Assembly (NCBI GenBank): GCA_043754535.1
Contig: JAYUUN010000005.1
Span: forward strand, 1 to 63,378
DNA from: Chloroflexota bacterium
GTDB lineage: Bacteria > Chloroflexota > Chloroflexia > QHBQ01
Direction: 5' to 3'
Length of the DNA stretch: 63,378 nucleotides
The stretch's first letter is position 1. Each line of letters starts with the position of its first letter. Shown piece after piece: positions 5,629 through 56,359 of the stretch. The position numbers and the translations under genes were made by a program. The notes beneath the pieces were generated by a model. The model was not told the origin of the DNA, searched no databases, and saw only the letters and a list, made by a program, of their open reading frames with translations.

Positions 5629-6246
5629 CTACGGCTTGAGCGGGCGGGCTGCTACCCCTTGCGGGCCGAAGCGGGCGACCACCAGTGCCTCTAGCCGAGT
5701 GCGGTATTCGCCAGCCGCCTTGAGGCTGCCAATATCACGACCCCGACGGGCAAGCACGGTGTTGGCCCAGAGCAGGCAGAGTTCCGCCGCCTTCAGCACC
5801 AGCCAGAGGGCGTACTGCTCTGGCGCATCGCTGGTGGCCGGGTAGCTGTCGCTGAAGTGTTGGAGGTCGTAGGCAGCATAGACGGTGAGGTTAGCCGGGC
5901 CTGCCTCTGCCGCGAGCAGGGGGCGGCTGAACAGCAGCACGCTGCCGAACATCCGATAGCTGAGGGCGGCACTGCTGGCGGTGTTGGGGTCGGCGGCCTC
6001 ATCGCGGTTGAGCCTGCGCCCAGCCAATTCCACGCTGAGTACGCTGCGGCAACCCGGCACCGCAAGGGCGCGCTGGCCCAGCACCGGGCTGTAGCTATCA
6101 TCGCGCAGGGTAGGCAGGTGTTGCGAGAGCCAGTCAATCGCCTCATTGAGCTTCTGCTTACGCAGGCTATCATCCCAGATGTAGCCGTCGCGGTCACCCA
6201 GTTCGTTCGCCAGTAGTGCGCTGGTGCTGGTCAGTTCGATAGTCAT
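5629..6246 (-). CDS. Putative phage head-tail adaptor/head-completion protein
   Basis: Last gene of the portal operon; AAGGAG RBS; N-terminal L.D....W.D..L...LNEAI pattern resembles head-completion proteins. Function inferred from context. Confidence 0.5.
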   Translation of the reverse strand: MTIELTSTSALLANELGDRDGYIWDDSLRKQKLNEAIDWLSQHLPTLRDDSYSPVLGQRALAVPGCRSVLSVELAGRRLNRDEAADPNTASSAALSYRMFGSVLLFSRPLLAAEAGPANLTVYAAYDLQHFSDSYPATSDAPEQYALWLVLKAAELCLLWANTVLARRGRDIGSLKAAGEYRTRLEALVVARFGPQGVAARPLKP

Positions 6247-6311: not shown

Positions 6312-6857
6312 CTAGAGGCGGCCCATGCGGTAGGCGCGCACGTGTTGCAGGAGGCTGCCAGGGCAGGTGGTGTCGTTGTGCGGTAGTTCGCAGTGGCCGT
6401 AAACCTCGTGGTCGGTGACGAGCAGAGCGCGCTGGCGGGCGAGGCTATCGAGGTACCAGCGCAGGCTGAGTAGCTGGGCGGCAGTTGGCTGCTGCCAGCT
6501 ACCGTTGGGCAGCACCCCCGCATCTACCAGGATTGCCAGGCTGCGCTCGTTGGCGGGCGAATGGGCGTGCCAGGTGACCACTTCGAGCGGTTGGGTGAGA
6601 TAAACGACCCCGCTGGCCCCAATCACGCGGTGGTACATCAGGCCGAAGCCGCCAACCCCACCGCCCCAGTCCTTGCGGATGTGATAGCGGGCGAAGTCGC
6701 GGATGCGGGCTAGCTCGTCGTGCGGCTGGTCGGGGCGGGGCGGATAGCCCGTCCAATGTACGGCCACCTCGCTGATCTGGCCGAGTGGTCGTAGTACGAG
6801 GTTGGGGCTGGCCGCTATGCGCGGTATGTCGTTCACGATGTTGACGATCTGGGGCAT
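6312..6857 (-). CDS. N-acetylmuramoyl-L-alanine amidase (Amidase_2/PGRP fold), endolysin-like
   Basis: VAVHWT, YH, WHA..AN, GH...T.CPG zinc-amidase motifs; no signal peptide; ATG overlaps the portal stop (TGATG). Confidence 0.85.
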   Translation of the reverse strand: MPQIVNIVNDIPRIAASPNLVLRPLGQISEVAVHWTGYPPRPDQPHDELARIRDFARYHIRKDWGGGVGGFGLMYHRVIGASGVVYLTQPLEVVTWHAHSPANERSLAILVDAGVLPNGSWQQPTAAQLLSLRWYLDSLARQRALLVTDHEVYGHCELPHNDTTCPGSLLQHVRAYRMGRL

Positions 6858-8146
6858 CACCCACCTCCTTGGGTGGCGGTTTCGCCAATAGCATCCTCTA
6901 CCTGGGCCGCATCGTGGATACCACGGTCGAACAACTGGCTCTCCACTGCCACGCGCTGGGCCAACTCCTGAGGCAATAGGGGCGGCCAGGTGATGGTCAG
7001 CACGGCTTCGCTAACGTCGGCGATGCGGCGGTGGCCGAAGCGTCGCCACTGGTCGAGGATCAGCCAGGCGCGGCGGCGCACCATGCTGCCCCAGCCGATC
7101 TGCTTACGGGCCACCTTTTGGGTGAGGGGTTGCAGTTCGAGTTCGAGGGCTATGCCACTGCGGTTGCCGCCACTGACTTCGCCGAAAGCGATGCGCGGCA
7201 TCTCTGCCAGGTCGTGGAAGACGCGGTAGAGAGCTTCGATGTAGCGCAGGTGTGCGCCAGCCGAGCCGCCACCCAGGAAGTCGAGCAGGTAGGCGCGAGC
7301 AGCGGGATTCTCCAAAGTCCAGAGTTGACCGGGGCCAACGCTGAGGTTGGCGGTCGCCTCCTGGGTCGCCCCAGAGACGACCGCTGCGGGGTTGCCGCTG
7401 GCCTCCAACAGGCGGCTGAGGGTAGAGAGGCGGCGGTTGAGTTCGTCCTGCACCCCTAGCAGCGGCTCAAGGTCGCTCATGCCCCAGGGCGATTTGGGGA
7501 TCGGCTGGTTGGCAAAGAAGATGAAGGGGATGTAGCCGTAGGGGTTGGGGCCGTCGCTGGTAGCCGCGCCGTTCTCGCGGATGATTAGCCGCGCATCCGT
7601 CCACTCCTCCTCGTAGGCCACGCCGCCACTGACATAGCGGTAGGTGAGGGCGGTCAGCCTGCGGTTGTTGCCGCCCCAGACCGGCTCCACGTTCATCACA
7701 TCGCAGGCATCCACCTGCACTCGCCCCTCAGCCGCGCTCCACAGCACGCGATAGCAGCCGTCGCCGAGGACGGCAGCATCAACGGCGGTGGCGTAGTCGA
7801 GGGCGGGCAGGTCGTTGTCGTCGGCGGTCTGCTGGTAGAGGCGGCCAAACCAGGCGGCCTGCTTGGCCGAAACCTGTGCGTAGCTGACCAGGGCGGGCCG
7901 AGCGGTGAGGTAAGTGGCCGCTTTGAGGACGAAGGCTTGCACGTAGTTGAAGGTGAGGCGGGTCTCGCGGCCACGCGCCTGGCCGAACCACTGCTGACCG
8001 TTGTAGAAGTCGAGCAACATCTGGTAGTGCGCCCGTCCCGCTGGAGCCGCCACACCCTCCCCCCAGCCGCTGGGGGCAAACCCGCCCGCAGCCCACCGCC
8101 GCGCCAACTGCTGCGGGCTGATCGCCGTAGAACCATAGTAAGTCAT
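6857..8146 (-). CDS. Phage portal protein (SPP1 gp6-like)
   Basis: FYNGQQW, LTFNY, NPYGYIPF..F.N, WGMSDL..L...QDELN, SGIAL motifs; start placed at ATG 8146 behind a GGGAGG RBS. Confidence 0.88.
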   Translation of the reverse strand: MTYYGSTAISPQQLARRWAAGGFAPSGWGEGVAAPAGRAHYQMLLDFYNGQQWFGQARGRETRLTFNYVQAFVLKAATYLTARPALVSYAQVSAKQAAWFGRLYQQTADDNDLPALDYATAVDAAVLGDGCYRVLWSAAEGRVQVDACDVMNVEPVWGGNNRRLTALTYRYVSGGVAYEEEWTDARLIIRENGAATSDGPNPYGYIPFIFFANQPIPKSPWGMSDLEPLLGVQDELNRRLSTLSRLLEASGNPAAVVSGATQEATANLSVGPGQLWTLENPAARAYLLDFLGGGSAGAHLRYIEALYRVFHDLAEMPRIAFGEVSGGNRSGIALELELQPLTQKVARKQIGWGSMVRRRAWLILDQWRRFGHRRIADVSEAVLTITWPPLLPQELAQRVAVESQLFDRGIHDAAQVEDAIGETATQGGG

Positions 8147-8251
8147 TGGTATTCCCTCCCTTTGCGGCAAACAAGCGCGGCGCACCCACAGATGTGGCTC
8201 GCGCTGCCTTGCCGCCACCGCCCTTTACTGGCAAGCGCAGTGCGGTTGGAG

Positions 8252-8309
8252 GGCAAGCAAAAAGCGCGGTTCCACCCTGGTCTGGGTGGCCGCGCAGTGC
8301 TTGCTACGG
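8252..8309 (-). terminator. Leader terminator of the portal operon carrying the 21-nt motif shared with the capsid operon
   Basis: Minus strand CCGTAGCAAGCACTGCGCGGCCACCC-AGACCA-GGGTGGAACCGCGC-TTTTTGCTTGCC. Confidence 0.7.
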
Positions 8310-8346
8310 TCAAGTATTCTGGTTCAGTCTTGTCGAACCTGACCAC

Positions 8347-8375
8347 ATTGTAGCACAATAGCACCTAATTGTCAA
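8347..8375 (-). promoter_or_regulatory. sigma70-type promoter of the portal operon
   Basis: TTGACA-17 bp-TACAAT with extended TGTG; same architecture as 44119-44147. Confidence 0.75.
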
Positions 8376-8430
8376 GGGGTGGCTAGCGAATGGGGGCAAG
8401 TGGCTGGCATAGAGGCGGTGACCAGGGGCG

Positions 8431-8620
8431 AACAAAAACGCGACTGCCCTTGTCGGTAGTCGCGCCGTGTCTTCTTGTTGTGTTGCAAAGCTACAAGTCT
8501 GCGGCCAAACCCATCTTCGTAAGGCGGGGCCGTAAGCGGCTTGTTACTTGTCCTCCGGACGAGCTAACGGCTCTCCATCTTCGCAGGGTCGCGTCGCGGG
8601 TACGAACGGTGAACGTCGGA
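8431..8620 (-). ncRNA. Candidate ~190-nt structured ncRNA or attenuator leader
   Basis: Bounded by TTGACT-17-TATAAT (8654-8626) and terminator CGCGACTACC-GACAAG-GGCAGTCGCG-TTTTTGTT; no credible ORF inside. Confidence 0.55.
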
Positions 8621-9048
8621 CTAGCATTATACGTTATGTTGGGGCAGGAGTCAAGTAGTTTGGCCTAAATTGGGCAGATTTGGGGGTCGCTGCCCGCCGC
8701 CCACTCAGCAAGCAGGCAGGGATGGAGGTGCTGCCACAATCTACACCTAAAGTTGGTTGCCAGAGGGTAGGGTAAGCTGCTATAATGGGGCATAGTTTGT
8801 ACTTTGAGAGGAGAGCAGCCCATGTCAGTCGCCACCCGCCAGTTTACCCCAGAGTGCGCCCGCTGATCTAGCTTGCCAGTCCTGGCTACCCCGCAGCAAC
8901 TTACCAATCAGGGCGTGACCCACGCGCCCGACTAGTTGCCTGCCCGCGAACCGCCTTCCAGCCTCACGCACTCCCAGCTTGCCGCCTCCAATCGGGGGCA
9001 AAGATGCTCTCCCCTGGGAGGGATAGGTGACGTGAAAGAGGTTCTGTT

Positions 9049-10311
9049 CTGACTAGACTTGATGCTACCCGCCTCTACCTGCTGGTGGCAGTAGGCTTTC
9101 GCTTCGTTATGGGCCTGACCTGGACGACCTTCCCCCTCCACCTGATCAACGACATCCACCTCGACCCCCTGCAACTGGTGCTGGCGGGTACGGCCATTGA
9201 GGGTGCGCAGTTCCTCGCCGAAATCCCGACTGGCATTGTTGCCGACGTGTACAGCCGCCGCCTATCCGTGATCATCGGCTACCTGGTGCTGGGGGCGGGC
9301 TTCATCGCCCTCGGCATCGCCACCAATTTCGCAGGCGTGCTGGTCGGGCAGGTGGTACTCGGCTTGGGCTGGGCCTTCATCAGCGGGGCGTTCACCGCCT
9401 GGCTCACCGACGAGGTGGGTGAGGCGCGCCTGGGCGACATCCTCTTGCACGCATCGCAAATCAGCATCCTCGGCGGTCTGGTTGGCAATGTAGTGGGGGT
9501 CGCCCTGGGGTTGGTCAGCCTGACCCTGGTACTGGTGCTGGCTGGTGGGCTGTTGATTTTGATTGCGGGTCTGATGTGTCTGCTGATGCCAGAACACAAC
9601 TTCAGCCCGATCCGCCGCGAGGTTGGGCAGGGCAACTTGCGGACGATGCTGACCACTGCCACCGTCGGCCTCAAGGTGGTGCGGGGGAGACCGCTAGCCT
9701 CGGTGGTCGTGGCAGTCGGCTTCTTCCTCGGCTTGTTCAGTGAGGGGCCAGATCGCCTCTGGCAGCAGCATTTGATTACCAACATCAGCTTCCCCAACAT
9801 TGGCTGGAACGTGATCATCTGGTTCGGCTTGATCGACACCATTACCGCCGTCCTCTTTTACTTCGTCGCGGGTTACATCCGCTCACGGCTGCCGATGGCA
9901 AGCAGCAGCCACCTGATCCGCGCCCTACTCGTCGTCAGCAGCCTGATGACTGGGGCGTTGTTCGGCTTCGCCCTCGCGGGCAACTTCGTCTTTGCGGTGA
10001 TCAGCAAAGAGCTACTCACCGTCAGCAGCAACGCCCTCGAACCCCTCTACGACACCTGGATCAATCAGAATCTCGACTCGCGGGTGCGGGCCACCGTGCT
10101 TTCCCTCAGCAGTCAGCTTCGCTCCCTCGGCGAGATCACTGCTGGGCCGATTGCAGGGGTGGTCGGCAACAGCTTCGGCCTGCGGGCGGTGATGTTGCTC
10201 GCCACCACGATGCTGCTCCCCGTGCCACTGTTGTTTGCCTACGCCAGCCGCCGCCCCAAGCCGGAGGTTGACGTGGTGGGGCGGCCAGGCCTGGCCCCTA
10301 AGCTAGATTAA
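9049..10311 (+). CDS. MFS transporter (TetA(P)-like efflux family), copy 1
   Basis: About 12 TM helices, EIPTGIVADVYSRR motif; start extended to CTG 9049 by identity with the paralog's 5' end (alternative GTG 9085). Confidence 0.88.
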   Translation: MTRLDATRLYLLVAVGFRFVMGLTWTTFPLHLINDIHLDPLQLVLAGTAIEGAQFLAEIPTGIVADVYSRRLSVIIGYLVLGAGFIALGIATNFAGVLVGQVVLGLGWAFISGAFTAWLTDEVGEARLGDILLHASQISILGGLVGNVVGVALGLVSLTLVLVLAGGLLILIAGLMCLLMPEHNFSPIRREVGQGNLRTMLTTATVGLKVVRGRPLASVVVAVGFFLGLFSEGPDRLWQQHLITNISFPNIGWNVIIWFGLIDTITAVLFYFVAGYIRSRLPMASSSHLIRALLVVSSLMTGALFGFALAGNFVFAVISKELLTVSSNALEPLYDTWINQNLDSRVRATVLSLSSQLRSLGEITAGPIAGVVGNSFGLRAVMLLATTMLLPVPLLFAYASRRPKPEVDVVGRPGLAPKLD

Positions 10312-14392: not shown

Positions 14393-14422
14393 TTGACATT
14401 AGAAACCATGTTCTGGTATAAT
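14393..14422 (+). promoter_or_regulatory. sigma70-type promoter P1 upstream of parA
   Basis: TTGACA-18 bp-TATAAT. Confidence 0.65.
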
Positions 14423-14636
14423 GACCTTGCAAGCAAGCAAGCGCAGTGCGAGTTAGCAGGGTAGCATAGGCTATCACACCTGGGGCGTATCCCTGTCGGC
14501 CTCAAACTGAGCATTGGGCAGTGTGCCTGCACTTCAGATTGTGTGCTATCCTACGCAATGTGGGTTGTCAGGGCCAGGATTGCGGCTTTGCAGCAAGGGA
14601 AAGGCAACATTAGTTAGTAATTGGCTGCAAAAGGTA

Positions 14637-14665
14637 TTGACAAATCGCGCGAATCATGCTAGATT
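14637..14665 (+). promoter_or_regulatory. sigma70-type promoter P2 upstream of parA
   Basis: TTGACA-17 bp-TAGATT with extended TG; like P1 it is preceded by TGCAAAA(A/G)G(C)TA. Confidence 0.55.
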
Positions 14666-14745
14666 CTATGTGGCACGTGTTATGTTTACTTCGATGTTAA
14701 TTGTCGGGCGGGTACGTGCGCCGCCAGCACGAAAGAGAGCCGACC

Positions 14746-15843
14746 TTGAGTGAGTTTCTGACCGTCGAAGAAGCCGCTGCCCGCCTGCGGGTGCATAGCC
14801 AAACGTTGCTGCGCTGGATCAAGGAGGGCAAGCTACCCTCGATCAAGATTGGTCGCAGCTATCGGATTAAGCCCCGCGACCTGGACAAGCTGATCGGCGA
14901 AGTCGGCGAGGGGCTGAGGCCGAACGAAGCGCAAGTGGTGGCTGTTGCCAACCAGAAGGGTGGGGTGGGCAAGACCACTACTACCTGGAACACCGGCGCG
15001 GCGATGAGTGAGCGCGATAAGCGGGTGTTGCTGGTGGATATGGACCCGCAGGCCAACCTGACTATCGCCATGCGCCTGCAACCCTACGCCCTCGAACGCT
15101 CGATCTACGACGGCCTCTCGGCTGTGCTTAGCGCGCAGAGCCAGGCTAGCTTCGACTCGCAGGAGGCAGACTTCGACCCACACAGCCTGATCATCCACAC
15201 GCGCAAGATGGACATCCTGCCCGCCAACATCGAACTGAGCAAGAGCGAACTGCGCTTTGCGGGGGGGATGCGCCGCGAATACCTGCTCAAGAAGCTGCTC
15301 GCGCCCCTCCGTGAGGAGTACGATGTGATCATGATCGACTGCCCGCCCAATCTTGGCCTGCTGACGATCAATGCGCTGGTGGCCGCAGACTGGGTGGTGG
15401 TGCCAGTGCAGACTGAAGCGTGGGCCGCAGCGGCGATCCGCCCAGTGCTAGACAGTCTGGCAACGATGCGTTCGCAAGACCTCAACCCCAACCTTGAACT
15501 GGCGGGCCTGCTGCTGACGATGGTGGACACCCGTACGGGGCTGACCCACGACGTGATTGATGCGATCCGCCGCGCCTACGCCGACCGGGTGCCGCTGTTC
15601 AAGACGATCATCAAGCGCAGCGTCAAGTTCGGGGCAAGCGCGATGCAGCAGGACAACATCCTCAGCTTCGACCCCAACAGCCCACACGCCGCTGCCTACC
15701 GCCACTTTGCCGCCGAGTTGATGGTGAGGATAGGGATCGAGAATGAGTTGCCACCAGTTCAGGTTGACGCGTTGGAGGAAGTAGACGAGGGCTTGGACGA
15801 CAAAGCTAGCGTCGGTAGCAGCAGCAAGGGCGGGAGGAAGTAG
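14746..15843 (+). CDS. parA: ParA partition ATPase with N-terminal excisionase-type HTH
   Basis: FLTVEEAAARLRVH..TL.RWIKEG HTH, then deviant Walker A NQKGGVGKTT, DMDPQAN, IDCPP; TTG start at 14746 behind GAGAG. Confidence 0.9.
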   Translation: MSEFLTVEEAAARLRVHSQTLLRWIKEGKLPSIKIGRSYRIKPRDLDKLIGEVGEGLRPNEAQVVAVANQKGGVGKTTTTWNTGAAMSERDKRVLLVDMDPQANLTIAMRLQPYALERSIYDGLSAVLSAQSQASFDSQEADFDPHSLIIHTRKMDILPANIELSKSELRFAGGMRREYLLKKLLAPLREEYDVIMIDCPPNLGLLTINALVAADWVVVPVQTEAWAAAAIRPVLDSLATMRSQDLNPNLELAGLLLTMVDTRTGLTHDVIDAIRRAYADRVPLFKTIIKRSVKFGASAMQQDNILSFDPNSPHAAAYRHFAAELMVRIGIENELPPVQVDALEEVDEGLDDKASVGSSSKGGRK

Positions 15844-15845
15844 GG

Positions 15846-16847
15846 GTGGTACGCAAGCGCACAAACGACAACTTCCTGATCGAGGCGTGGGGCAACCCAA
15901 CGGTGGGCAAGGGCGGCTCGGTGCTAGACGAGATGCTGAACAACCCAGAGTTGCCGGTGACAATGCTGCCGCTGGAGCAGCTAGTTGGCAACCCCTATCA
16001 GCCGCGCCAGAGCTTTGGCGACGAGGAACTGGATGAGCTACGGCGCAGCATTGAGATGCACGGCTTCCTCGGCCACCTGGTCGCCCGCCGCTATGAGCGC
16101 GACCGCTATCAGATCGCTTACGGCGAACGCCGCCTGCGGGCCAGTAAGCTGGCGGGGCTGGAGCGTCTACCAGTGCAGGTGCAGGACCTGGACGACAACC
16201 AGATGATGCAGATCGCCCTGGCCGAGAACCTCCAGCGTGTTGACCTCAGCCCACTGGAAGAAGGGGTGATGTATGTGATGATGATGGGCCAACTGCACCT
16301 TAGCTACAGCGAACTGGCCGAGATGATTAACAAAGATAAGGGATACATCCAGAACCGGGTGCGGCTGGCAAAGGCACCAGACGACCTCAAGCAGATGGTG
16401 ATGGCCCGGCCCGAAACCCTCTCTGCGGTTCGCTATCTGGTGAAGGTAGAGGACGGGGCGGCGCGCAAGGTGTTGGCGGCGGCGATGCTGGATGGTCGGG
16501 TGACGGTCAAGATGTTGAGCGAGAACGAAGGCGACCTGCTGGGGCTGGCCGAGCGGCTGCTGCACCCAACCCAGGCAGCGTATGTACGCACATACGAGCA
16601 GCCAGAGTTGGCGGCGAAGGAGGCGTATGTACGCACATACGAGGAGGAGCAGGAGGAGGCGAGCAATCGCTACAGCGTCGGTCGGCGGCGGCTGGATGTG
16701 GTCTATCGCAACCTGGCTAACCTGCACATGAGCAGCGAGCGCAACCTGGGTAAGCTATCGGTGGAGGCACGTACCGACATGATGACTACCCTGCGTGGCA
16801 TCCGCCAGATGGCTGAGGAGATGTTGGCTCGCCTTGATCAGGATTGA
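15846..16847 (+). CDS. parB: ParB/RepB/Spo0J partition protein
   Basis: NPYQPR, GERRLRA, ENLQRVDLSPLEE, followed by an HTH; 2 bp after parA. Confidence 0.92.
   Translation: MVRKRTNDNFLIEAWGNPTVGKGGSVLDEMLNNPELPVTMLPLEQLVGNPYQPRQSFGDEELDELRRSIEMHGFLGHLVARRYERDRYQIAYGERRLRASKLAGLERLPVQVQDLDDNQMMQIALAENLQRVDLSPLEEGVMYVMMMGQLHLSYSELAEMINKDKGYIQNRVRLAKAPDDLKQMVMARPETLSAVRYLVKVEDGAARKVLAAAMLDGRVTVKMLSENEGDLLGLAERLLHPTQAAYVRTYEQPELAAKEAYVRTYEEEQEEASNRYSVGRRRLDVVYRNLANLHMSSERNLGKLSVEARTDMMTTLRGIRQMAEEMLARLDQD
16579..16641. repeat. Two identical 18-bp palindromes inside parB (candidate parS)
   Basis: CGTATGT-ACGC-ACATACG at 16579-16596 and 16624-16641, encoding AYVRTYE twice. Confidence 0.7.
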
Positions 16848-16999
16848 CTGAATCGCGGCTGACTGTGTCTTACATCCGTGTTAATCGGCGCACCCACCCG
16901 CGCAGGGGGCGGGGCTGCATCGGCAGCTTATGCACTGGTGACCGCGCTCTTGCGTCGTCTGGCTCTGGCAGAGACGGCGGCAGGGGCTACGAAAGAACA

Positions 17000-17103
17000 C
17001 AAAGAAAGAGGCCGCCCCCCTTAGCTTGCCGGCACCGGGGACAACCTCTTACATTGGAAGGCCGTGTTGCTATGAGCCTCACGACAGGTTTTGCTACCAC
17101 CTG
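17000..17103 (-). ncRNA. Counter-transcribed antisense RNA (ctRNA-like) between parB and rep
   Basis: Perfect TTGACA(17137-17132)-17-TATAAT(17114-17109) on the minus strand; ends in a ~14-bp stem AAGAGGTTGTCCCC...GGGGGCGGCCTCTT plus a U-rich tail. Confidence 0.72.
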
Positions 17104-17187
17104 GATTCATTATACCAGAGTAGCGAGTCGCTGTCAATAGCACGAGGTCAACCAGGGGTTCACGGTGAACCCAGAAAGGATGATGCT

Positions 17188-18681
17188 ATGCTACGCGACC
17201 TTCGCAGCGCGCCATTCTGCTGGCAGGAGAAGACTGTCATGCGGAAGCTGCGCGCCCACTACACGGGTGCTATCTTCAGCCACCGGGCGACCGCGATTGC
17301 GATCTACCAGGCACTGACCGAGGTGGCCTCTAACCAGAACAGCCAGAACGAGGCCCGCGCCTTTGTGCGCCAACTGGCAGAACTGGCGGGCTGCTCCGAC
17401 CGCACCGCCCAACGCTACATCCGCGAGTTCGAGGAGATCGGCCTGGTCGTTACCCACCGCAATCGGCTGGACGAGCGCACCAATCTAGCGAACACCTACT
17501 CGCTCGTCTCCTCCACCGCCGAGGGCGTAGCACTGGTGGCCTCAGTGTCACCACCCACCGACAGCAGCGGCCCACCTGCCCTGGCGCGGGCGACCACGCG
17601 AGCCAAGCGCAAGCCAGCCGCCCCCCCTCATCTTGAGCCTACGGCCCTGGTGTCGCCCACGCCACCAGCCCCCACCGCTGCCACCAACATGGTGTCGCCC
17701 ACGCCACCAGCCCCCACCGCTGTCACCAATATGGTGCCGCCCATGTCACCAGCGGCGATCTCCACGCCACCAGTTGGCGATCCCCACGCCGCCAATGATG
17801 GTGATCGGGGTGTCGCCCTTATAGAACCAGAGTCAGAACCAATTTATCTAGAACAACAACCAGCGGCGAAAGTGGCTGTTGTTGGCAGTGGGGTGGATAA
17901 GCGGCTGAAGGGGAGCAGTGGGCAGCAGCCGTTGGCCGCCGAGGAGGACTGGCGGCGCACTGTTGCCCGGCGCAAGCTAACCATGCGGGTGATAGAGGGC
18001 GGCAACCCGCCAGCCGAGCAAGTCGGCCCACCGTCCAGCCCGCCGCCGCTAGCCGAGGATGAGCAGCCGCAGCCGCCCCTGCCCACCCCGCCAGAGAAGG
18101 TGGACGAGGCGCAGCAGGAGTTGATCCAGAACCTCAAGCTGGCGATGATTGGCCTGGGGGTGGACGAGCGCACGGCCCAGCTACTGGCCGCCGAGCGCGA
18201 CCCACAGTTGGTGGCGGGCTGGCTGCACTATGTTCAGACTGAGCCGGGTATCAGCCGCCCAGCCGCCCTGTTGGTCAGCCGTCTGCGGGCGAACGAGGCA
18301 GTGCCAGCCAGGGCTACTAATCGCCCACAGCCCCCGCCGCCCATCGCGCCGCCCACGGAGGACAAGCTGGCTCGCGACCAGCAGCGGCAGCAGGAGGCAG
18401 CCCTTGCCCTACTCGTCAGCTACGAGGTGGATGAAGCGACGCTGCGGCTCTGGCTGGCAGTGCAAGAGCGGCTGGCCGTGGAGGAGCCAGAGGCTTACCG
18501 CCGCTGCTTCCGCGATGCCTTCCTTGCTCGCCCCGCCGCTGGGGTCGCCCTGATCGTCCTGCCCCCCCGCGTGCCACTAGCCGAGGCCGAGCGGCACGTT
18601 CTCACCCTGCGCCAACTGCTACTCCCCTTGATTGGGGGCCGCGACCTGGTGATCGAGTTTGAACACCCCCACCGCCTGTGA
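17188..18681 (+). CDS. Putative replication initiator (N-terminal winged HTH, repeat-rich linker)
   Basis: AIYQAL...VRQLAELAGCSDRTAQRYIREFEEIGLV...NTYSL resembles phage/plasmid initiator wHTH; ATG 17188 behind AAAGGA; third gene after parAB. Confidence 0.7.
   Translation: MLRDLRSAPFCWQEKTVMRKLRAHYTGAIFSHRATAIAIYQALTEVASNQNSQNEARAFVRQLAELAGCSDRTAQRYIREFEEIGLVVTHRNRLDERTNLANTYSLVSSTAEGVALVASVSPPTDSSGPPALARATTRAKRKPAAPPHLEPTALVSPTPPAPTAATNMVSPTPPAPTAVTNMVPPMSPAAISTPPVGDPHAANDGDRGVALIEPESEPIYLEQQPAAKVAVVGSGVDKRLKGSSGQQPLAAEEDWRRTVARRKLTMRVIEGGNPPAEQVGPPSSPPPLAEDEQPQPPLPTPPEKVDEAQQELIQNLKLAMIGLGVDERTAQLLAAERDPQLVAGWLHYVQTEPGISRPAALLVSRLRANEAVPARATNRPQPPPPIAPPTEDKLARDQQRQQEAALALLVSYEVDEATLRLWLAVQERLAVEEPEAYRRCFRDAFLARPAAGVALIVLPPRVPLAEAERHVLTLRQLLLPLIGGRDLVIEFEHPHRL
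17648..17860 (+). repeat. Intragenic iteron-like repeats plus AT-rich patch (candidate oriV)
   Basis: 42-bp unit TGGTGTCGCCCACGCCACCAGCCCCCACCGCTG(C/T)CACCAA(C/T)A about 2.5 times, GGCGATC repeats, then AT-rich 17819-17860. Confidence 0.55.
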
Positions 18682-18977: not shown

Positions 18978-20270
18978 ATGGAAGAAGGAGATAACGGTAT
19001 TAGCCATTTCTACACTGAGCCGTCAATCTATCGGGCTGCTGCTCACCTCCAGCGGGCCGAGGCCGCCATGCGGAGTACGGACTACGTTGTGGCAGCCCAC
19101 CAGTTGGCCCAGGCCACTAACATTGCGGACTTGAGCGCAGGTGTAGGAGCAGAGTTGCGCCCCCTGGCCGCCCGCCTTGCCTGGCTGCGCGGGATGCTAG
19201 CCTACAATCGCGGGCAACTGAGCGAAGCGCAACGCTCGCTATTGCTGGCTGAGAGCAACGCACTGGCGGCGGGCTTGAGCGACGACCTGCTGACCAACAT
19301 CCTCAAAGCCCTGGGCAACACCGCCTACCTCAAGGGCGAGATGGATGCTGCCCTCGACTACTACCAGCGGGCCAACGAGCTTGCCACCCGGCTTGGTGCG
19401 CACGACCTGGCCGCCCTGCTCCTGGTCAACAGCGGTGGTGTCTACCTGAGCCGAGGCGACATAGCACAGGCGATGGATTGCTACGAACGTGGCTTGACCC
19501 GTGCCGAACTAAGCGGCGACGCAGCCACCCGCTGCCAGTGCTACGGCGTGCTGGCCCTGATTTGCTCAAGCTACATCTCCTTCCCCCGCGCCCTCCGCTA
19601 CGCCGCCTTCGCCAGCGAACTGGTCAGCGACTTGCGGAGCAGCCGCCTGCGCTACCTCGTTCTTACCGACCTGGGCATCGTCTACCTGCGCGCTAATCGC
19701 TTGAGTTGGGCCGCAAGCTGCCTGCTGACCGCCCACCATTTGGCCCAGCGTGGCGGCGACCGGGTGGCCGAAGCAGTCGCCAGCATCAGCCTGGCCGAGT
19801 TGCGCCAGCGGCAAGGGGCGGCGGCTGATGGCTACCGCTACGCCCGCTTCGCCTTCAGCGTCAGCACTGATGTGCCGAGCATCCGCAGCCGCGCCGCCCT
19901 CGCCTACGCCCGCGCCCTGGCCGCCCGTTCAACCGCCGCTGCCGAGCGCGAGCAACTGATCGAGCGAATGAAGGTGCAGCTAGCCAGCGAGAAGGGTGAG
20001 GAGGCTGCCTTCTTGCAGCGCGGGCTGGCGACCTTGCACGCCGCCGCTGGCGAGAGGGAGGCGGCGGCAGCAGCATACCAGGCCGCGATCATCGTCGCTG
20101 CCCCCACCCCCTACCAGCAGGCCGTCACCCTGGAGGAGTATGCCACCTTGCTGCAAGAACTGGGGGAGCGTCAGACTGCCATCCGCGCCCTTGAGCAGGC
20201 CGCCAGTCTCTACCGCCGCCTGAGCTTGCAGGCGAGCCTCGACAACATCGAAATCATGCTCACCGCCTAG
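18978..20270 (+). CDS. Tetratricopeptide-repeat protein, paralog 1
   Basis: LG..AY..GE.D.AL.YYQRA TPR pattern throughout. Confidence 0.85.
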   Translation: MEEGDNGISHFYTEPSIYRAAAHLQRAEAAMRSTDYVVAAHQLAQATNIADLSAGVGAELRPLAARLAWLRGMLAYNRGQLSEAQRSLLLAESNALAAGLSDDLLTNILKALGNTAYLKGEMDAALDYYQRANELATRLGAHDLAALLLVNSGGVYLSRGDIAQAMDCYERGLTRAELSGDAATRCQCYGVLALICSSYISFPRALRYAAFASELVSDLRSSRLRYLVLTDLGIVYLRANRLSWAASCLLTAHHLAQRGGDRVAEAVASISLAELRQRQGAAADGYRYARFAFSVSTDVPSIRSRAALAYARALAARSTAAAEREQLIERMKVQLASEKGEEAAFLQRGLATLHAAAGEREAAAAAYQAAIIVAAPTPYQQAVTLEEYATLLQELGERQTAIRALEQAASLYRRLSLQASLDNIEIMLTA

Positions 20271-20392
20271 CCAAAAAGTACCCCCGTGTACTAGCTATAT
20301 AGTACCATCCTATCCTACACAGCCTCCCATAAGCCGCTACGCCTTGTGCTGTCGTGCTTCATCTGCTACAATAAGTGTTGAGGGGGTAAGCG

Positions 20393-21751
20393 GTGCAAGT
20401 AATGGAGCAAGAGGGACTACTAGCCTGTCTAGATTGTCAGCGCAGCAATTCAGCGCAGGCAGCTAAGTGCCAGCAGTGTGGAGCGGCCATGCGCCCTGCC
20501 CACGCCAGCCACCACCTCGACCAGGCGGAGGCTGCTATCCTTGCTGCCGACTACGAGCGGGCCGTGGAGCAACTCAACCAGGCCGACCTGGAGATGCTGG
20601 CCCTGCGCCAAAGCGAGCGTGACCGCTACTTGCTTAGTGCCAGGGGCTTCTGGCTACAAGGTCTGATGTACTATAGCCGTAGCATGATGACTGAAGCGCG
20701 CCACGAACTAACCCTCGCTCGCACCAGCCTCGTTGCCCAGCCCAGCGGCCAACACCTGCTCTGCAACGTGCTGCTCCGCCTCGGCAACATCGGCTACTAC
20801 CAGGAGAGCTTTGATGAGGCTAACAGCTACTATCGCCAGAGCGCATTGCTAGCCGCCCGCCTCGACAACCACCCCCTCGCCGCCAAAGCTCTCAGCAATA
20901 TCGGCGTGATCGTCACCATCCAGGGCCAACCCGACACTGCCCTTGACTATCACCTGCGCGCCCTCACTCACGCCGAACAGGGCGGCGACCCCGACGCTCT
21001 CAGCCAGTGCTACCGCGTCCTCGCCAACCTCTACAGCCGCCAGGGGCCGTATAGCAGGGCTACAGAGTTCGCCGCCAAAAGCATAGCCCTGCACTCCCAG
21101 ATTGAGAGCCGCGACACCCTCGCTACCCTCTACACCGAAGCCGGGCGCATCTACCGCACCGTCGGCGACTACCGCTCGGCCCGCCAATACCTCCACCAGG
21201 CTCAGGAGCTTACCCGCCACAATCCTAACCTGATCAACCTGACTATCGTAGAGGTCGAACTGGCAATCCTCGCCAGCCAGCAGGGTGACCCCGAAGGCTG
21301 GCTAGCTTTCGCCCACCATGCCTTCAATGAGGCGCACGAGTCGCCGCTGGTCAAAGCCGCCGCCTGCGAACAACTTGCCCTGTTCTATGCAGCCCGGAGC
21401 GACTGGCCGCATAGCCGCCACTACTTCCAGCAGTGGCGCGAAGAACTGGAGCGCGGCGGTGGCGACCAGAGCAATGGCGGCCTCGCCCGCATGGAAGCCA
21501 CCCTCTGCGCTGCCGTCGGCGACTGGCTGGCAGCAGTGGCAGCCTACCAGCGTGCCTTCAGCCAGCCCCTCAGCCGCTACCAGTTGGCCCTAACCTGGCA
21601 GAGCTATGCAATATTGCTTGCGGCCATGCCCGCCCGCGACCCAGCAGCCGAGTGCGCTGCGCTACAGGAGGCAGCCACCCTCTACCGCCAACTCGAACTG
21701 CCCCAGCAGCTTGCTGTCGTCGAAGCCGCCCGTGCTGACCGCCTGCCCTGA
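20393..21751 (+). CDS. Zinc-ribbon plus TPR protein, paralog 2
   Basis: CLDC...N....KCQQCG followed by TPRs. Confidence 0.85.
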   Translation: MQVMEQEGLLACLDCQRSNSAQAAKCQQCGAAMRPAHASHHLDQAEAAILAADYERAVEQLNQADLEMLALRQSERDRYLLSARGFWLQGLMYYSRSMMTEARHELTLARTSLVAQPSGQHLLCNVLLRLGNIGYYQESFDEANSYYRQSALLAARLDNHPLAAKALSNIGVIVTIQGQPDTALDYHLRALTHAEQGGDPDALSQCYRVLANLYSRQGPYSRATEFAAKSIALHSQIESRDTLATLYTEAGRIYRTVGDYRSARQYLHQAQELTRHNPNLINLTIVEVELAILASQQGDPEGWLAFAHHAFNEAHESPLVKAAACEQLALFYAARSDWPHSRHYFQQWREELERGGGDQSNGGLARMEATLCAAVGDWLAAVAAYQRAFSQPLSRYQLALTWQSYAILLAAMPARDPAAECAALQEAATLYRQLELPQQLAVVEAARADRLP

Positions 21752-22057
21752 GCAGTCCACCACTACTCTACCGCTTAGCCAAACTGCCACAGCAAAGCAG
21801 CAGCCTCCTCTGCTAGACTTGCCGCAGCCGCCTGTCTTCTAGAGCAGCGTAACAGAAAGCAGCATATGTAGTTTATCTATGTATACACTCCAAATACCGA
21901 CACGACTGTTCTGCAATCCTTGGCGAAAATCTGTACCTGGTCTATAATGGCAACATCATCGGCGGCCATCTGGCTTGCTCTACAGGTTCTGAACTATCAT
22001 ATGAGTAATAGGGCAGCCTGCGCGTTCTGCGTGGCTAGTCCACCTGGGCGGGCAAAG

Positions 22058-32625: not shown

Positions 32626-32658
32626 CGAGGGGCAGCATAGTAGCAAGGAGGTGGTGGC

Positions 32659-39041: not shown

Positions 39042-39701
39042 ATGAGTAGGATCGTTGACCTTAGCCACCCGGTCGAGGAGCAGATGCCCAACTACCCTGG
39101 GCGGCTTGCCCCCCTGTTTGGCATAACCGAAGAAGCCACCGTGGTCGCCAGCGAGCAGCCAGGCAGCCCCTTCCTGATCAACCGCTTTGGCTTCGATGGC
39201 GATCTCGGCACCCACCTGGATGCCCCCCACCACGTCTTCCCCACTGGCCTGGACGTTGCTAGCCTACCGCTTGACCGCCTCGCCAACCTGCCAGGCGTAG
39301 TCGTCAACATCAGCCGCCAGCCTGGGCGCGCCATTGGCCCCGCCGCCTTCACCGACCTGGAACTAGCGGGTCGGGCCGTGCTGCTCCGCACCGACTGGTC
39401 GGTACGCTGGTCGATCCCCTCCTACTGGCGCAACGCTCCATACCTGACCGCAGAGGGGGCCGCCCACCTGGTCGCGCAAAGGGTGGCCCTGGTCGGCATC
39501 GATTGCGGCAGCATAGACGACCGCAGCAACCCCCACAAACCGGCCCACACCCTGCTGCTGGCTGCTGATATCCCGCTGATCGAGCAATTGACCAACATTG
39601 CTGTGCTAGGCAACGACTTCTTCCGCTTCTTCGCCGCCCCCATCGCCCTACGCGGAGCCGCCTGCTTCCCCGTGCGCGCCTTCGCCATCATCGAGGGCTA
39701 G
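39042..39701 (+). CDS. Cyclase family metal-dependent hydrolase (KynB-like)
   Basis: IVDLSH, GTHLDAP.H, LVGID..SID, H..LL, PVRAFA. Confidence 0.88.
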   Translation: MSRIVDLSHPVEEQMPNYPGRLAPLFGITEEATVVASEQPGSPFLINRFGFDGDLGTHLDAPHHVFPTGLDVASLPLDRLANLPGVVVNISRQPGRAIGPAAFTDLELAGRAVLLRTDWSVRWSIPSYWRNAPYLTAEGAAHLVAQRVALVGIDCGSIDDRSNPHKPAHTLLLAADIPLIEQLTNIAVLGNDFFRFFAAPIALRGAACFPVRAFAIIEG

Positions 39702-40231
39702 CCAATCGCCAGGTGTTCGAGCAGCAGCACGGTGACCAGCCAGCCGAGGTTGGGCAGGCAGTCGGTTTGCAGCCGCTCATGCCACTGGTGCAGGTAGACG
39801 TTGTAGCTGCCGCCCTCTGGCAGGTCGAGGTTCGCGCCCACCCCCGCCCCGCCGAGGTCGTAGAAGGCAGCCAGGCTAGCCCGCATGGCTGCCCCGCTGC
39901 GGCCCGCCGGTGCGCCACTGCGGGTCAAAGCACCATCGCGGCAATCCAGTTCGACCAGCCACAGGCGCGGGCTGGCGGTAGTACCCAGCGTCCACCGCTG
40001 CTGCTGGCGCACGGCCCCTACGTACTCGGTCAGCAGGTCGCCAGCCGTCTGCACCGCCGGGGTGTTCAGCACAAGAGTGCGCTGCATCTCCAGCCGCCCC
40101 GGTCGGGCGAGATAGAACTCCTGGGCCAGCCCGCCCCCCACCGTCGCGTGGCTGAGGCGCATATCCCAGCCAGGTAGGGTAGGGTCGCCCACTGCGTAAA
40201 GCTCCTGTACTGCATCCTCATAGTTGCTCAT
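39698..40231 (-). CDS. Hypothetical protein downstream of the terminase
   Basis: ATG behind AAGGAGAAG; co-oriented with the terminase. Confidence 0.6.
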   Translation of the reverse strand: MSNYEDAVQELYAVGDPTLPGWDMRLSHATVGGGLAQEFYLARPGRLEMQRTLVLNTPAVQTAGDLLTEYVGAVRQQQRWTLGTTASPRLWLVELDCRDGALTRSGAPAGRSGAAMRASLAAFYDLGGAGVGANLDLPEGGSYNVYLHQWHERLQTDCLPNLGWLVTVLLLEHLAIG

Positions 40232-40318: not shown

Positions 40319-41749
40319 CTAGAGGTAGGAGCGCACCGTCGCCCCACTCGGCTGCTCCTTCTTCTTCGGCTCGTCCAACAAGACGCAGAGGCTAGCACTG
40401 ATTACCAGGTCGTCGTGCAAGGTTGCACCCGGCACTTGCCAGCGCAACTGCTTGCTCGTCCCCACCACCTCGGCTTGCAAGTTGGCCGCTTGCTGCCAGA
40501 AAAGGCGGCTCTCCGCTGCCCCCTCGTCCACATATTCCTTGTAGCGGCCCTGCTCGATGCAGGCCAGCCACCGCCAGCCCAGGTCGCTCTTGCTCTGCGC
40601 TGTAAAGGTGAACTTGCGGACGCGCTCACCCAATGCCGCCTCCAGGTGGCTAGCGATGCCCATGCCCAGCCCCGTCGCGTCCACCACCAGCCGCTCCGCC
40701 CGCCAGTGGTCGGCCAGGGCCAGCACCTGCTGCTCAAGGTCTACGTGGTTCGCGCCCTGCCAGCTACGGCGGTCTACCACCTGGTAGGCGGGTAGGCCGC
40801 GCCCGCTCGCCACCATCTGCACGACGGTCAGGGCGGTGCTGTCGCGGCGGGGATTGCCACTGCGCCGCTCGGCCTCATCCGCCTCGGCCTCGCCCCCCAC
40901 GTCGAGCAGCAGCGCGTAGCGGCCAGCGGCCTGTGGCTCCCGCTGGCGGTCGTGTTCACCGTGCATTAGGGCTAGCTTTGCCGCGTCCAGCATCGCGCCG
41001 TTGCCGTCGTACTCCTCCAGGCAGTACTCGGTGCGAATGAAGGGGTGCTGCGCGCCAAGCTGGGCGATCCGCGCCTGCACCCGCCGTCCATACGCCTCCA
41101 CCGTTGCCGCCACCTCCTCCCAGCGCACCCGCCAGAGTTGCTGATAGCCTGCTTCAGCCTGGGCCAGAGCGTAGCGGCGTTCGCGGGCCAGCAAGCTGTG
41201 GCTGTTCCAGGGCGTGCCGAAGAACACCGTTGTCGCATCGGTGGCCGCCGCCATCGGGTCGAAGCGCGCATCCCACACGTCGGGGTCAACATCCTGGGCT
41301 TCGTTGCAGAGCAGCAGCAGGTCGGCAGTATCGCCGCGCACGTTCGCGCTCTCTGCCGCACTCAGGTAGACCGCACTGGCCGCCCCAAGCTGCACCCCCC
41401 GCGTCCCCTCCTTCCGTACCTCCCCCGCGAAGGCCGAGTTCTGCAAGCGCGTCAGCAGGCGGCGGCGGCTGATTGCCCCCTGACCCTCAGTCGGGTTCGC
41501 CATCACCACCCGCCCACCGCTCTCGCAGCGCAAAACCAGCAGGTAAGCGATAGTCTGGGCGATCAACTCGTCCTTGCCGCTCTGCCTGCTAAACTCGATC
41601 ACGAACCTGCGCCCCCAACCACCCAGCACACTCGCCACAATCGCCTCCGCCGGGCCAAGCTGGTAGCCCCGCAATGGCAGCTTCAGCTCCTGCTCGCTGA
41701 ACATCGCCAGCCCCGTCAGCGGCTCTGGCCCCTTGTTCTCTGTTGCCAT
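40319..41749 (-). CDS. Terminase large subunit
   Basis: Walker A SRQSGKD, Walker B-like LLLCNEAQ, motif III FGTP, nuclease LLLDVGG, VDATGLG, HDDLV. Confidence 0.85.
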   Translation of the reverse strand: MATENKGPEPLTGLAMFSEQELKLPLRGYQLGPAEAIVASVLGGWGRRFVIEFSRQSGKDELIAQTIAYLLVLRCESGGRVVMANPTEGQGAISRRRLLTRLQNSAFAGEVRKEGTRGVQLGAASAVYLSAAESANVRGDTADLLLLCNEAQDVDPDVWDARFDPMAAATDATTVFFGTPWNSHSLLARERRYALAQAEAGYQQLWRVRWEEVAATVEAYGRRVQARIAQLGAQHPFIRTEYCLEEYDGNGAMLDAAKLALMHGEHDRQREPQAAGRYALLLDVGGEAEADEAERRSGNPRRDSTALTVVQMVASGRGLPAYQVVDRRSWQGANHVDLEQQVLALADHWRAERLVVDATGLGMGIASHLEAALGERVRKFTFTAQSKSDLGWRWLACIEQGRYKEYVDEGAAESRLFWQQAANLQAEVVGTSKQLRWQVPGATLHDDLVISASLCVLLDEPKKKEQPSGATVRSYL

Positions 41750-42226: not shown

Positions 42227-42260
42227 CCAAACCAACCAGATAGCCGAAAGGAACAACCCC

Positions 42261-42776
42261 ATGCCAGACCACGCCAGCGAGATTGGCCGCGACGAGCGTA
42301 GCCACGAGGAGAAGTTGCAGGATCGCGGCATCTCCCCCACCGAACACCCCGCCATGGACGAGAACCTGGGCAATCCCGACTATCGGGTGGCCCAGCATGG
42401 CACCCAGGGCCAGACTGAGGACGACAGCGACGACAACAGCGACGGCCAGCACACCTATAGTGAGGGTAAGCCGCAGCCACCAGCCAGGAAGGTAGCCCGC
42501 ATGGCAGCCGAAGTCGAAGCCGAAGCCGAGGCCAAAGACAGGCCGCAGAACCAGTTGGAGGAGGAGCAGGAACACCACCTCTCCGAGCAGAGCCAGCGTG
42601 ACCGCGACGAGACCACCGCCCCCAATGCTGGCAAGGGCCAACATGACCGCAACAGCGACCGCAGACAGGTGGAGGCCGAAACCATCAACCAGCAGCGGCG
42701 GTTAGCCACAACCAGCACTGCCCACAAAGAGGGGACGCGCAAGCACGTCCCCTTCTCCATGCCAGCCCCGGTTTAG
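42261..42776 (+). CDS. Acidic, likely disordered hypothetical protein
   Basis: AAAGGA RBS; D/E/Q/H-rich; stop overlaps the capsid stop. Confidence 0.7.
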   Translation: MPDHASEIGRDERSHEEKLQDRGISPTEHPAMDENLGNPDYRVAQHGTQGQTEDDSDDNSDGQHTYSEGKPQPPARKVARMAAEVEAEAEAKDRPQNQLEEEQEHHLSEQSQRDRDETTAPNAGKGQHDRNSDRRQVEAETINQQRRLATTSTAHKEGTRKHVPFSMPAPV

Positions 42777-43654
42777 CGCACCCCCTTCAGGCGGGCCAGG
42801 GCCGCATCGCGGAAGTTCGCCAGCCCAACGTACCACTTTAGCCGCGTGCGGCTAGCATCCTTCGCCTCCAGCGGGCCAAGCCGCTCCACCTGTATCCCCC
42901 CGTTGTCCAGCCCCATTACGCCGCGCTCGTAGCCGAACTGAAGCGCGTAGATGCTAGAGCAGTCGTTGCTGCTGCCCATCACCTCCGCGTCGCCGATGTT
43001 GTCGTCCACCTCAATCGGGATGCCGTTGTAGTAGCTCTGGCTAATGCCAAACTCGTCGGGGCTGCTAGCCACCGTGCCAGTAGTACGCGCCAGCCGGGTC
43101 AGGCTGCGGCGGCTGCGGCGGCTCATCAGCAGCAGATCGGGCTTGCCAGGGCGCACCTGGTCGAGCAGCGCATCCAGCAAGTCCAGGGTCAATGCCCCCC
43201 CGTTCGGCCCCACCGTCGCCGTCTGGCCCACCGCTGCCAGCTTCGCCAGCCCGTCGAACCCGTTGCTGTCAGCGTCTACGTCGCCGTTGATGAAGTTGGC
43301 CGCGAACTTGTAGCCGACAGCCCGCGCCTTCGCCTCAATCACAGTCGCCTCCAGGTCGTTGATGTTGGCGTAGGTCTGCTGCAAAAAGTTATCCACATCC
43401 GCGTCGCCACCGAGGATCGCCAGGCTCGCCTGCTTGCGGGCGAAGGTCGGCGTACTCTCAATCCAAACGTCGCCCACCGCGTGAAACTCTACGGTGCCAT
43501 GAGTCAACACCTGGTTGTATTGCAGGCTGCTGCCGTTGATCGTCATGAAGGGCAGGTACTTGAGTACGGGGCTGGTCGTGGTCATCGTCTCCACCACCCC
43601 CTGCAACATCATGCTCTGGCTCAAGTTCGCCGCCTCGATAATTGTCAGTGCCAT
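42773..43654 (-). CDS. Phage major capsid protein (HK97-fold type, about 293 aa)
   Basis: LPF..I.G....YN, LGGDADVD.F, FINGD.....FDGL, L.L..LD.L.D.V, YNGIPI, SSIY, R.KWY; ATG behind GGAG. Confidence 0.85.
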   Translation of the reverse strand: MALTIIEAANLSQSMMLQGVVETMTTTSPVLKYLPFMTINGSSLQYNQVLTHGTVEFHAVGDVWIESTPTFARKQASLAILGGDADVDNFLQQTYANINDLEATVIEAKARAVGYKFAANFINGDVDADSNGFDGLAKLAAVGQTATVGPNGGALTLDLLDALLDQVRPGKPDLLLMSRRSRRSLTRLARTTGTVASSPDEFGISQSYYNGIPIEVDDNIGDAEVMGSSNDCSSIYALQFGYERGVMGLDNGGIQVERLGPLEAKDASRTRLKWYVGLANFRDAALARLKGVR

Positions 43655-43700: not shown

Positions 43701-44006
43701 TCAGCGACCCCGCCGCAGGGCCAGCCCAATCTTAGCTGCTGCGCCAAGCGGCCAGGGCGCGGTCTGCTCCTGTCGCACCACGTTGACTGCTGGCACGCTC
43801 GGCGCGGTCGAGGTCAGGCTAGCCCGCACCTCGCCGTAGATCGCCACCGTGCGCGCCAACGCCGCGTCCAGTGCCACCTTGCTCTCGCCCGCCACCAGCC
43901 CATGCAGCGCAGGCACACCCGCCACCGCCGACCCCGCGATCACCTGCCCGCGATAGCCCGCCAGCAACTCGGCCATCGCTGCCTGCGTGTCTGTCGTTTC
44001 GTCCAT
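43701..44006 (-). CDS. Small helical protein upstream of the capsid (putative scaffold)
   Basis: AGGAGGT RBS; first gene of the capsid operon. Function inferred from position. Confidence 0.6.
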   Translation of the reverse strand: MDETTDTQAAMAELLAGYRGQVIAGSAVAGVPALHGLVAGESKVALDAALARTVAIYGEVRASLTSTAPSVPAVNVVRQEQTAPWPLGAAAKIGLALRRGR

Positions 44007-44039
44007 CTCATACCTCCTTGCAAAAAGCCCCTCGCCGCA

Positions 44040-44109
44040 GGCAAACAAAAAGCGCGACTGGCCCTGCCACCCAATGGTGAAAGAGTCAGCCGCGCAGTGC
44101 TTGCTACGG
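44040..44109 (-). terminator. Leader terminator of the capsid operon carrying the shared 21-nt motif
   Basis: Minus strand CCGTAGCAAGCACTGCGCGGCTG...CAGTCGCGC-TTTTTGTTTGCC. Confidence 0.7.
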
Positions 44110-44118
44110 AATACGATT

Positions 44119-44147
44119 ATTGTAGCACAGATGCTCTCTTTTGTCAA
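44119..44147 (-). promoter_or_regulatory. sigma70-type promoter of the capsid operon
   Basis: TTGACA-17 bp-TACAAT with extended TGTG. Confidence 0.75.
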
Positions 44148-56326: not shown

Positions 56327-56359
56327 GCCTGCTTTGCAGGTCGGTTAGGAGGAGTGAGG

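Follow-up and report, generated by a model that had tools for sequence, protein, structure and literature searches.

Two operons of virion genes in one stretch of DNA from an uncultured Chloroflexota bacterium (hereafter, the window; 63,378 nucleotides) begin with the same 21-nucleotide element, which raises the question of what this element does ahead of genes for virus particles. A preliminary description of the window had proposed that promoter, leader, and terminator form a single cassette upstream of both operons. In general, we find that this soil-type bacterium carries old virus-particle genes in three pieces, each headed by the same short, predicted RNA stop signal. The features in the window are collected in Table 1.

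Table 1. Predicted features of the two virion operons and their leaders, in window coordinates
Feature	Position	Strand	Evidence or remark
Portal protein, first gene of operon A	6857..8146	-	Pfam SPP1_portal 1.9e-21; phrog_64
Amidase/endolysin	6312..6860	-	Pfam Amidase_2; phrog_1493
Podovirus-type head-tail adaptor (SU10 adaptor-like)	5629..6246	-	Atlas feature score 0.96, TM 0.74
Scaffold-like protein, first gene of operon B	43701..44006	-	Weak match (E 0.006); family lies upstream of relatives' capsid gene
Major capsid protein	42773..43654	-	phrog_212 4.9e-66; Pfam Phage_capsid
Terminase large subunit	40319..41749	-	Pfam Terminase_6C; phrog_2
177-aa protein past terminase, possibly tail-related (lead only)	39698..40231	-	Atlas 0.79 to viral clusters; 1.7% amino acid change to sister species
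Upstream unit	8425..8654	-	Promoter 8654-8626 and ~190-nt non-coding transcript (8620-8425), predicted
21-mer copy A	8289..8309	-	37 nt past -10; proposed recognition site
21-mer copy B	44089..44109	-	9 nt past -10, about +4 of transcript
Promoter A	8347..8375	-	Sigma-70 consensus 11/12 plus TG extension; without LexA box
Promoter B	44119..44147	-	Consensus 11/12; spacer has 2 mismatches to LexA box here, 4 in sister species
Leader terminator A (predicted)	8253..8295	-	Stem 8295-8264 (-22.4 kcal/mol), tail 8263-8253
Leader terminator B (predicted)	44040..44095	-	Stem 44095-44052 (-28.0 kcal/mol), tail 44051-44040
Extra 5' hairpin, leader A only	8321..8339	-	
Second hairpin, leader A	8164..8215	-	Degenerate copy of the first, without 21-mer; kept in sister species
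Weak second hairpin and U run, leader B	44020..44053	-	Overlaps first tail, abuts ribosome-binding site

The two copies of the 21-mer are identical, as first reported, and are the only matches in the window at ≤3 mismatches (2 found, 0.01 expected). The whole assembly (G000; 3.87 Mb, 89% complete) contains three exact copies and none with 1 to 3 mismatches. The third copy (C; G000:C47:4256-4276) lies ahead of a 54-aa ORF and a small-terminase-like gene. The element thereby marks 3/3 virion loci, which together contain all virion genes detected in G000, and no other site in the genome, with copy A heading the portal operon, copy B the capsid/terminase operon, and copy C the small-terminase gene on contig C47. 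A genome-wide, REP-like repeat unrelated to virion genes, the alternative raised in the preliminary description, was not seen, as all three copies found at ≤3 mismatches belong to virion loci. The genome of a sister species (G001) has the same three copies with the same genes downstream.

Beyond these two genomes, searches yielded copies from the same species only. The exact 20-mer retrieved nothing from 185,579 species genomes other than the three copies of G001, and a gapped pattern run against metagenomes retrieved three loci, of which two were from the same species (99.6%) and one was a chance match. Viral contigs contained no 18-mer matches, and none of the 32 matches to a looser pattern in these contigs had the fold or promoter of the model. 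Among 400 genomes of the phylum, a single 2-mismatch match was found in five, below the reversed control (about 30). The covariance-model search suggested in the preliminary description was run on this genome and its relatives (61 genomes); it returned the six training copies at 79 to 96 bits but nothing else above 23 bits. Two 16-nt partial matches to the 21-mer were located within ORFs and were discarded. The sole window match to Rfam covariance models was a T-box (56057-56303), with nothing credible in positions 8000-9100 at E values up to 10; a likeness of the 21-mer to the T-box portion at 56250 was dismissed as chance. We note that this T-box leader (56057-56332, plus strand) is followed by two cupin-like ORFs and then ileS. 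Taken together, the known range of the leader 21-mer is the two uncultured genomes and same-species metagenome contigs only.

All three 21-mers sit on the same strand as, and downstream of, a TTGACA-17-TA(C/T)AAT promoter. In the window, each copy follows a TTGACA-17-TACAAT promoter on the minus strand (8375-8347 and 44147-44119) and precedes the first gene, in agreement with the preliminary description. The leaders are 106 to 194 nt long. Because the element lies 9 (B), 19 (C), and 37 nt (A) after the -10 hexamer, the shared element resides in the RNA and not in promoter DNA. When the core promoters were tested for a common DNA element, the leader spacers shared only TGTGC beside the -10 hexamer, which precedes it in all three leader promoters versus 9 of the 128 consensus promoters of this type in G000. 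This pentamer may be a relic of one ancestral promoter.

Each 21-mer provides the 5' side of a GC stem (-22 to -38 kcal/mol) that runs directly into a U-rich tail (≥5 U in 8), and the earlier reading of the two window copies as terminator-like hairpins thus holds. The tail is paired as well, with nucleotides 6 to 12 of the 21-mer, which brings the interrupted outer stem to 14 bp; the full leader fold is an interrupted stem of 19 to 30 bp. Comparable flank-to-tail pairing (≥7 bp) was present at 51/250 terminator-like sites. The tail of leader C is interrupted, and the second hairpin of leader A finishes directly ahead of the ribosome-binding site. All three virion loci have a terminator-like hairpin after the promoter and ahead of the first gene, extending the original claim to copy C; by the filter used, only 5/128 consensus promoters have such a hairpin within 150 nt, and three of these five are the virion leaders. 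Among the 250 terminator-like sites, the virion leaders are the only trio with a common 15-nt 5' word, and one unrelated pair also has one. The shared tail was indeed present after both stems in the window, but it proved to be the general terminator tail of G000, occurring at 64 sites that include those after T-box leaders and tRNA genes. The leader tail matches the tail of the T-box terminator at 56318, to which the tail of leader B is equal. With 128 such promoters and 64 such tails in the genome, neither the consensus promoter nor the shared tail is specific; the specific features are the 21-mer and its placement.

Across the six copies (A, B, and C in two species), the 5' strand is invariant (6/6), and 97.6% of cells are paired. 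The sole changes in the outer stem turn G-C pairs into G-U by substitutions in the 3' strand, with no two-sided changes. The invariant 5' strand includes nucleotides 1 to 5 and the unpaired nucleotides 13 and 14. Inner stems have been rebuilt, with lengths of 19 to 46 nt and mostly different sequences. The preliminary description had held that the loops differ completely while pairing is kept; pairing is indeed kept, but leaders A and B have an inner CACC/GGGUGG hairpin in common, which indicates that the copies are old duplicates. Because the 5' strand is fixed while the 3' strand drifts from G-C to G-U and the inner stems are rebuilt, the 21-mer is constrained as a sequence and not merely as a pairing partner.

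Between G000 and G001, the 21-mers show no changes in 63 nt, versus 0.10 to 0.27 at four-fold sites; the probability of this outcome is near 2e-4 at a neutral rate of 0.13. Loops A and B are also near-unchanged between the two species, which makes the between-species test weak, and the weight is thus carried by the paralogue comparison, which comprises only three independent copies and for which the shuffle control is uninformative. Overall, the leader observation is real, specific, and selected.

The 21-mer can also fold by itself. Taken alone, it pairs end to end (-6.5 kcal/mol; loop of 5 nt) in a structure that excludes the terminator, and in predicted folds this small hairpin forms in 6/6 leaders until the 3' arm emerges. 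A self-fold as good was obtained for 742/5000 shuffles and 209/1024 alternative 5' ends (15 to 20% of controls), and the self-hairpin is no better than chance. Folds that include the small hairpin are 7 to 17 kcal/mol less stable than the free fold. In leader B, nucleotides 1 to 6 of the 21-mer can pair downstream of the tail instead, and the second weak hairpin with its U run can form when the small hairpin is forced. In leader A, the same forcing frees the first tail, which occupies the 5' arm of the second hairpin.

The genes behind the leaders belong to a cassette that is widespread in the class. Profiles built from relatives' cassettes found G000 members solely at the three 21-mer loci; two cassette families (a small coiled-coil/membrane protein and a 560-715 aa protein) had no G000 match by profile. 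The small-terminase-like gene at locus C has a weak PHROG match (E 0.008) and is matched by the profile of relatives at 4e-15. The adaptor family was present in 18 of the clustered loci from relatives, and no long-tail genes were found in the cassette. Capsid, portal, and large terminase genes lie within one stretch of ≤20 kb at 13/20 loci from 19 relatives, and some of the remaining relatives' loci also appear split. The capsid gene was matched in 37/61 class genomes (a tally that includes G007), mostly in single copy and at 48 to 62% identity. A capsid tree built by a quick method from 32 sequences (31 genomes), from which G007, five partial hits, and the second G017 copy were left out, required seven host-group label changes, the smallest number possible, and placed the bacterium's own family in two long branches. 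Virion proteins of G000 and G001 differ by 1.7 to 7% of amino acids versus 10 to 27% at four-fold sites. The mostly single-copy state, the host-congruent capsid tree, and the low amino acid change relative to four-fold change fit a host-kept element. From its genes, the cassette fits a host-kept, podovirus-type head cassette across Chloroflexia and is a candidate gene transfer agent. A literature search for a Chloroflexota gene transfer agent or capsid cassette returned no relevant description.

Some further features of the cassette deserve mention. The gap between the capsid and large terminase genes contains two antisense ORFs, both acidic (101 and 189 aa; 41921-42776, plus strand), and four-fold divergence favours the plus-strand frames. 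No consensus promoter was seen for the terminase. Many relatives' cassettes (L021-L047 and L053-L062) have intergenic tandem repeats of 6 to 7 nt together with longer palindromic repeats.

Control of the cassette seems to be lineage dependent: several families have LexA boxes, one family lacks them, and one genus has the leader. Scoring used the LexA box consensus, and the box is present upstream of lexA in G000. Among relatives' cassette heads, which were placed by eye with four f5 loci and two short loci unscored, a LexA box with ≤1 mismatch was present at 6/14 and one with two mismatches at three more. The box was missing from the five cassette heads of family f2. None of the six leaders of G000 and G001 has a LexA box (best match, 2 to 4 mismatches), against a background of 8/128 promoters. 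Given this difference from the relatives, the leader occurs together with a cassette in three pieces and the loss of LexA control. We infer that the leader took the place of the LexA operator in this genus, and the order of these events is likewise our reading.

Several observations in this part of the analysis stand on their own. The f2 heads L053, L054, L059, and L060 show by eye a TGTC(C/T)(C/G)G ... TTAA/TTAG pair, perhaps an alternative-sigma promoter. One relative (G002) has two cassettes (L063 and L065), one LexA-boxed and the other without a good box. Scattered in G000 are LexA-boxed operons with mobile-element-like genes (L174, L175, L177, and L178), encoding a SWIM protein and a 284-aa protein of no assigned function with SSB; an FtsK-like protein; a replication-initiator-like protein; and an unassigned protein with an excisionase-like HTH protein. 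Between the virion loci, genes for HTH-ParA, ParB, and a replication initiator (14393-18681, plus strand) follow a promoter with a 1-mismatch LexA box. This module is syntenic in G001, and the cumulative GC skew turns near 18 kb; it may be a chromid origin or a run-off-replication module. The window also contains three tandem TPR genes (18978-23407, plus strand) and two tandem Mrr-family nuclease genes after mazG (31897-33312, plus strand).

A regulator acting on the leaders was sought among known antiterminator families. The CAT RNA-binding domain (PF03123) was detected in 0/5 genomes, with G000 being 89% complete. In G000 and G001, the Q family gave only matches below cutoff for PF06530 and none for PF03589, and no GlpP or ArpU gene scored over cutoff in genomes that are 87 to 89% complete. 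G000 and G001 each have one NusG, with no second NusG-family gene of the RfaH/LoaP/UpxY type. An ANTAR protein is encoded by one gene in each of five genomes, with or without the leader. The LexA-boxed genes of G000 included none with an antiterminator annotation. Two candidates, an HTH/Hfq-like gene (35079-35477) and the LexA-boxed 284-aa gene, were rejected since both are order-wide (41/61 and 38/61 genomes, tallies that include G007, G012, G015, and G034) and thus do not track the leader. The former is the second member of an XRE-HTH gene pair (33895-35477, plus strand) and has a weak Hfq-related domain; its 41 genomes are nearly all of the same order.

The unit upstream of leader A offers a candidate of another kind. 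Its predicted ~190-nt transcript ends in a related terminator that lacks the 21-mer and contains two internal 9-nt repeats. The unit is restricted to the genus, is 92% identical in G001, has no Rfam match, and is not 6S RNA. The transcript is a candidate partner of the leaders or an independent RNA.

Starting from the observed copy number, location, conservation pattern, terminator-like anatomy, and lack of LexA boxes, we propose, at about even chances, that the leader is an attenuator opened by a trans-acting RNA-binding factor that coordinates the three cassette pieces. Each leader promoter would fire, the GC stem would form, and RNA polymerase would halt at the U tract, leaving the virion genes off. 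On induction, the invariant 21-mer would be bound as it emerges by a factor acting in trans, for which an RNA-binding protein of a not-yet-described family is the likeliest candidate. The 21-mer would probably be bound as its own small hairpin, making the 5' arm of the terminator unavailable, and the three operons would then be read through together. A processive factor would also clear the second hairpin of leader A and the second weak hairpin with its U run in leader B. All of the following belong to this reading of the sequence: that transcription terminates, that a factor exists, that the small hairpin is where it binds, and the order of events. A broader version is distinctly more doubtful. 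In it, Chloroflexia would have a podovirus-type gene transfer agent not described before, and one genus would have exchanged the LexA operator that served as its master switch for an RNA regulon. Three identical 21-nt sites, recognised either by RNA-binding antiterminators of a new class or by the ~190-nt RNA, would then keep the split cassette coordinated.

Other explanations account for parts of these data. Three strong promoters might simply be damped by a leaky terminator without regulation; a single promoter-plus-terminator unit would have been duplicated as the cassette broke up, and the outer stem would stay identical only because single changes break pairing. The copies are in fact homologous past the 21-mer (the inner CACC/GGGUGG hairpin and the TGTGC before -10), degenerate copies lacking the 21-mer lie at 8164-8215 and 8428-8470, flank-to-tail pairing is common among terminator-like sites, and the regulator searches found none. 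We nonetheless consider this explanation rather unlikely, as the inner stems and degenerate copies diverged and the 3' arm drifted to G-U while the 5' strand, including nucleotides 1 to 5 and unpaired 13 and 14, remained fixed. Less likely again is post-transcriptional control, with the long hairpin acting on RNA processing, stability, or translation (for instance, as a substrate of the RNase III type or by hiding the ribosome-binding site). RNase III sites precede phage T7 genes, the full fold offers a long interrupted stem, and in A and B the Shine-Dalgarno sequence is base-paired when the leader folds freely, with the stem of C ending beside it. However, the stem is flush against the standard terminator tail of the genome, and structure-recognising nucleases would not need 21 identical bases.

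Slightly below this in probability, the 21-mer may act as DNA, either as a repressor operator past the start site or as a start site for packaging by terminase. The element is imperfectly palindromic, lies at about +4, +14, and +32, and marks exactly the packaging genes, but if it acted as DNA, its 14 bp of pairing with an arm 22 to 50 nt away would not have survived the rebuilding of the loops. The terminator could also be blocked by a small RNA that pairs with the 21-mer, and the ~190-nt transcript might be that RNA, but we regard this as quite improbable. That transcript adjoins leader A, shares its genus-only range, is 92% identical between the species, is not 6S, and has a 5-nt complement to each end of the 21-mer, both conserved in the two species; these stretches form a hairpin of their own, making the match a cheap one noticed after the fact, and there is no complement of the 21-mer at ≤3 mismatches. 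Finally, copies A and B are in direct orientation around a LexA-boxed ParA-ParB-Rep module and could be attachment-site-like repeats bounding a 35.8-kb excisable segment with the parA-parB-rep and capsid genes. This is highly improbable given the third copy on C47, the portal gene outside the segment, the 0 integrases among 55 window proteins scanned, and the order-wide host genes and ordinary GC content of the segment.

An attenuator opened in trans, which we favour, has partial precedents. The preliminary description had likened the leaders to lambda Q and GafZ of the Caulobacter gene transfer agent (CcGTA). With GafZ, BrrG (BaGTA), and lambda Q, the proposal shares antitermination as the on-switch of virion genes. 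The GafZ element lies between -10 and -35, as for Q and AlpA, according to PMC11150451; BrrG binds near its own promoter, needs a -10-like pause, and links loci of separate origin via a leader terminator, according to 10.1101/2024.11.20.624540. As these sources describe them, such factors load from promoter DNA, whereas the leader element is downstream, at a variable distance, and embedded in the terminator. The analogy to Q and GafZ is not supported by this comparison, with no Q-family gene over cutoff and the leader element beyond -10 in every copy; because GafZ has a promoter DNA site and BrrG binds near the promoter, these analogies fit the logic and not the anatomy.

Another precedent is the RAT, a short conserved RNA that overlaps the 5' arm of a terminator and folds as an alternative hairpin (PMC3369931). 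Like the BglG/SacY RAT as outlined there, the leader has a conserved stretch that overlaps the terminator 5' arm, and this stretch can be folded as one alternative hairpin, a fold that 15 to 20% of controls also reach. It differs in that its element is 21 nt and the RAT 29 to 30 nt, in that no CAT-RBD gene was found in 5/5 genomes, and in its proposed control of virion genes versus sugar uptake. ANTAR systems of the EutV type likewise make a regulon from a repeated element over several terminators, and both elements start with AGCAA. In contrast to the ANTAR RNA described there, the leader lacks the hexaloop A1/G4 (its loop has 5 nt), and leader B has no room for a second hairpin; the single ANTAR gene also occurs in relatives without the leader. 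The conAn and zipper-type attenuator of the pLS20 conjugation operons (PMC8191782 and PMC13401043) resemble the leader in placing RNA control with alternative pairings at the head of a mobile-element operon. The pLS20 leaders run to hundreds of nucleotides with the zipped stem as antiterminator, whereas those here measure 106 to 194 nt, and in them the long stem would be the terminator.

As no gene of the CAT-RBD, Q, GlpP, ArpU, or NusG-paralogue type was found over cutoff, an RNA site of this kind would point to an RNA-binding regulator not yet described, and the 21-mer is a ready-made bait for it. A class-wide, host-kept head cassette in Chloroflexia would also provide a natural case of domesticated-phage rewiring. 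Like the dispersed loci of RcGTA, CcGTA, and BaGTA, the cassette consists of mostly single-copy, family-congruent head and packaging genes under purifying selection. It differs in its podovirus-type adaptor, in that no long-tail genes were found, and in its Chloroflexia host. If the proposal is true, an RNA site inside the terminator would control a dispersed virion regulon by a route distinct from the promoter loading described for GafZ and BrrG.
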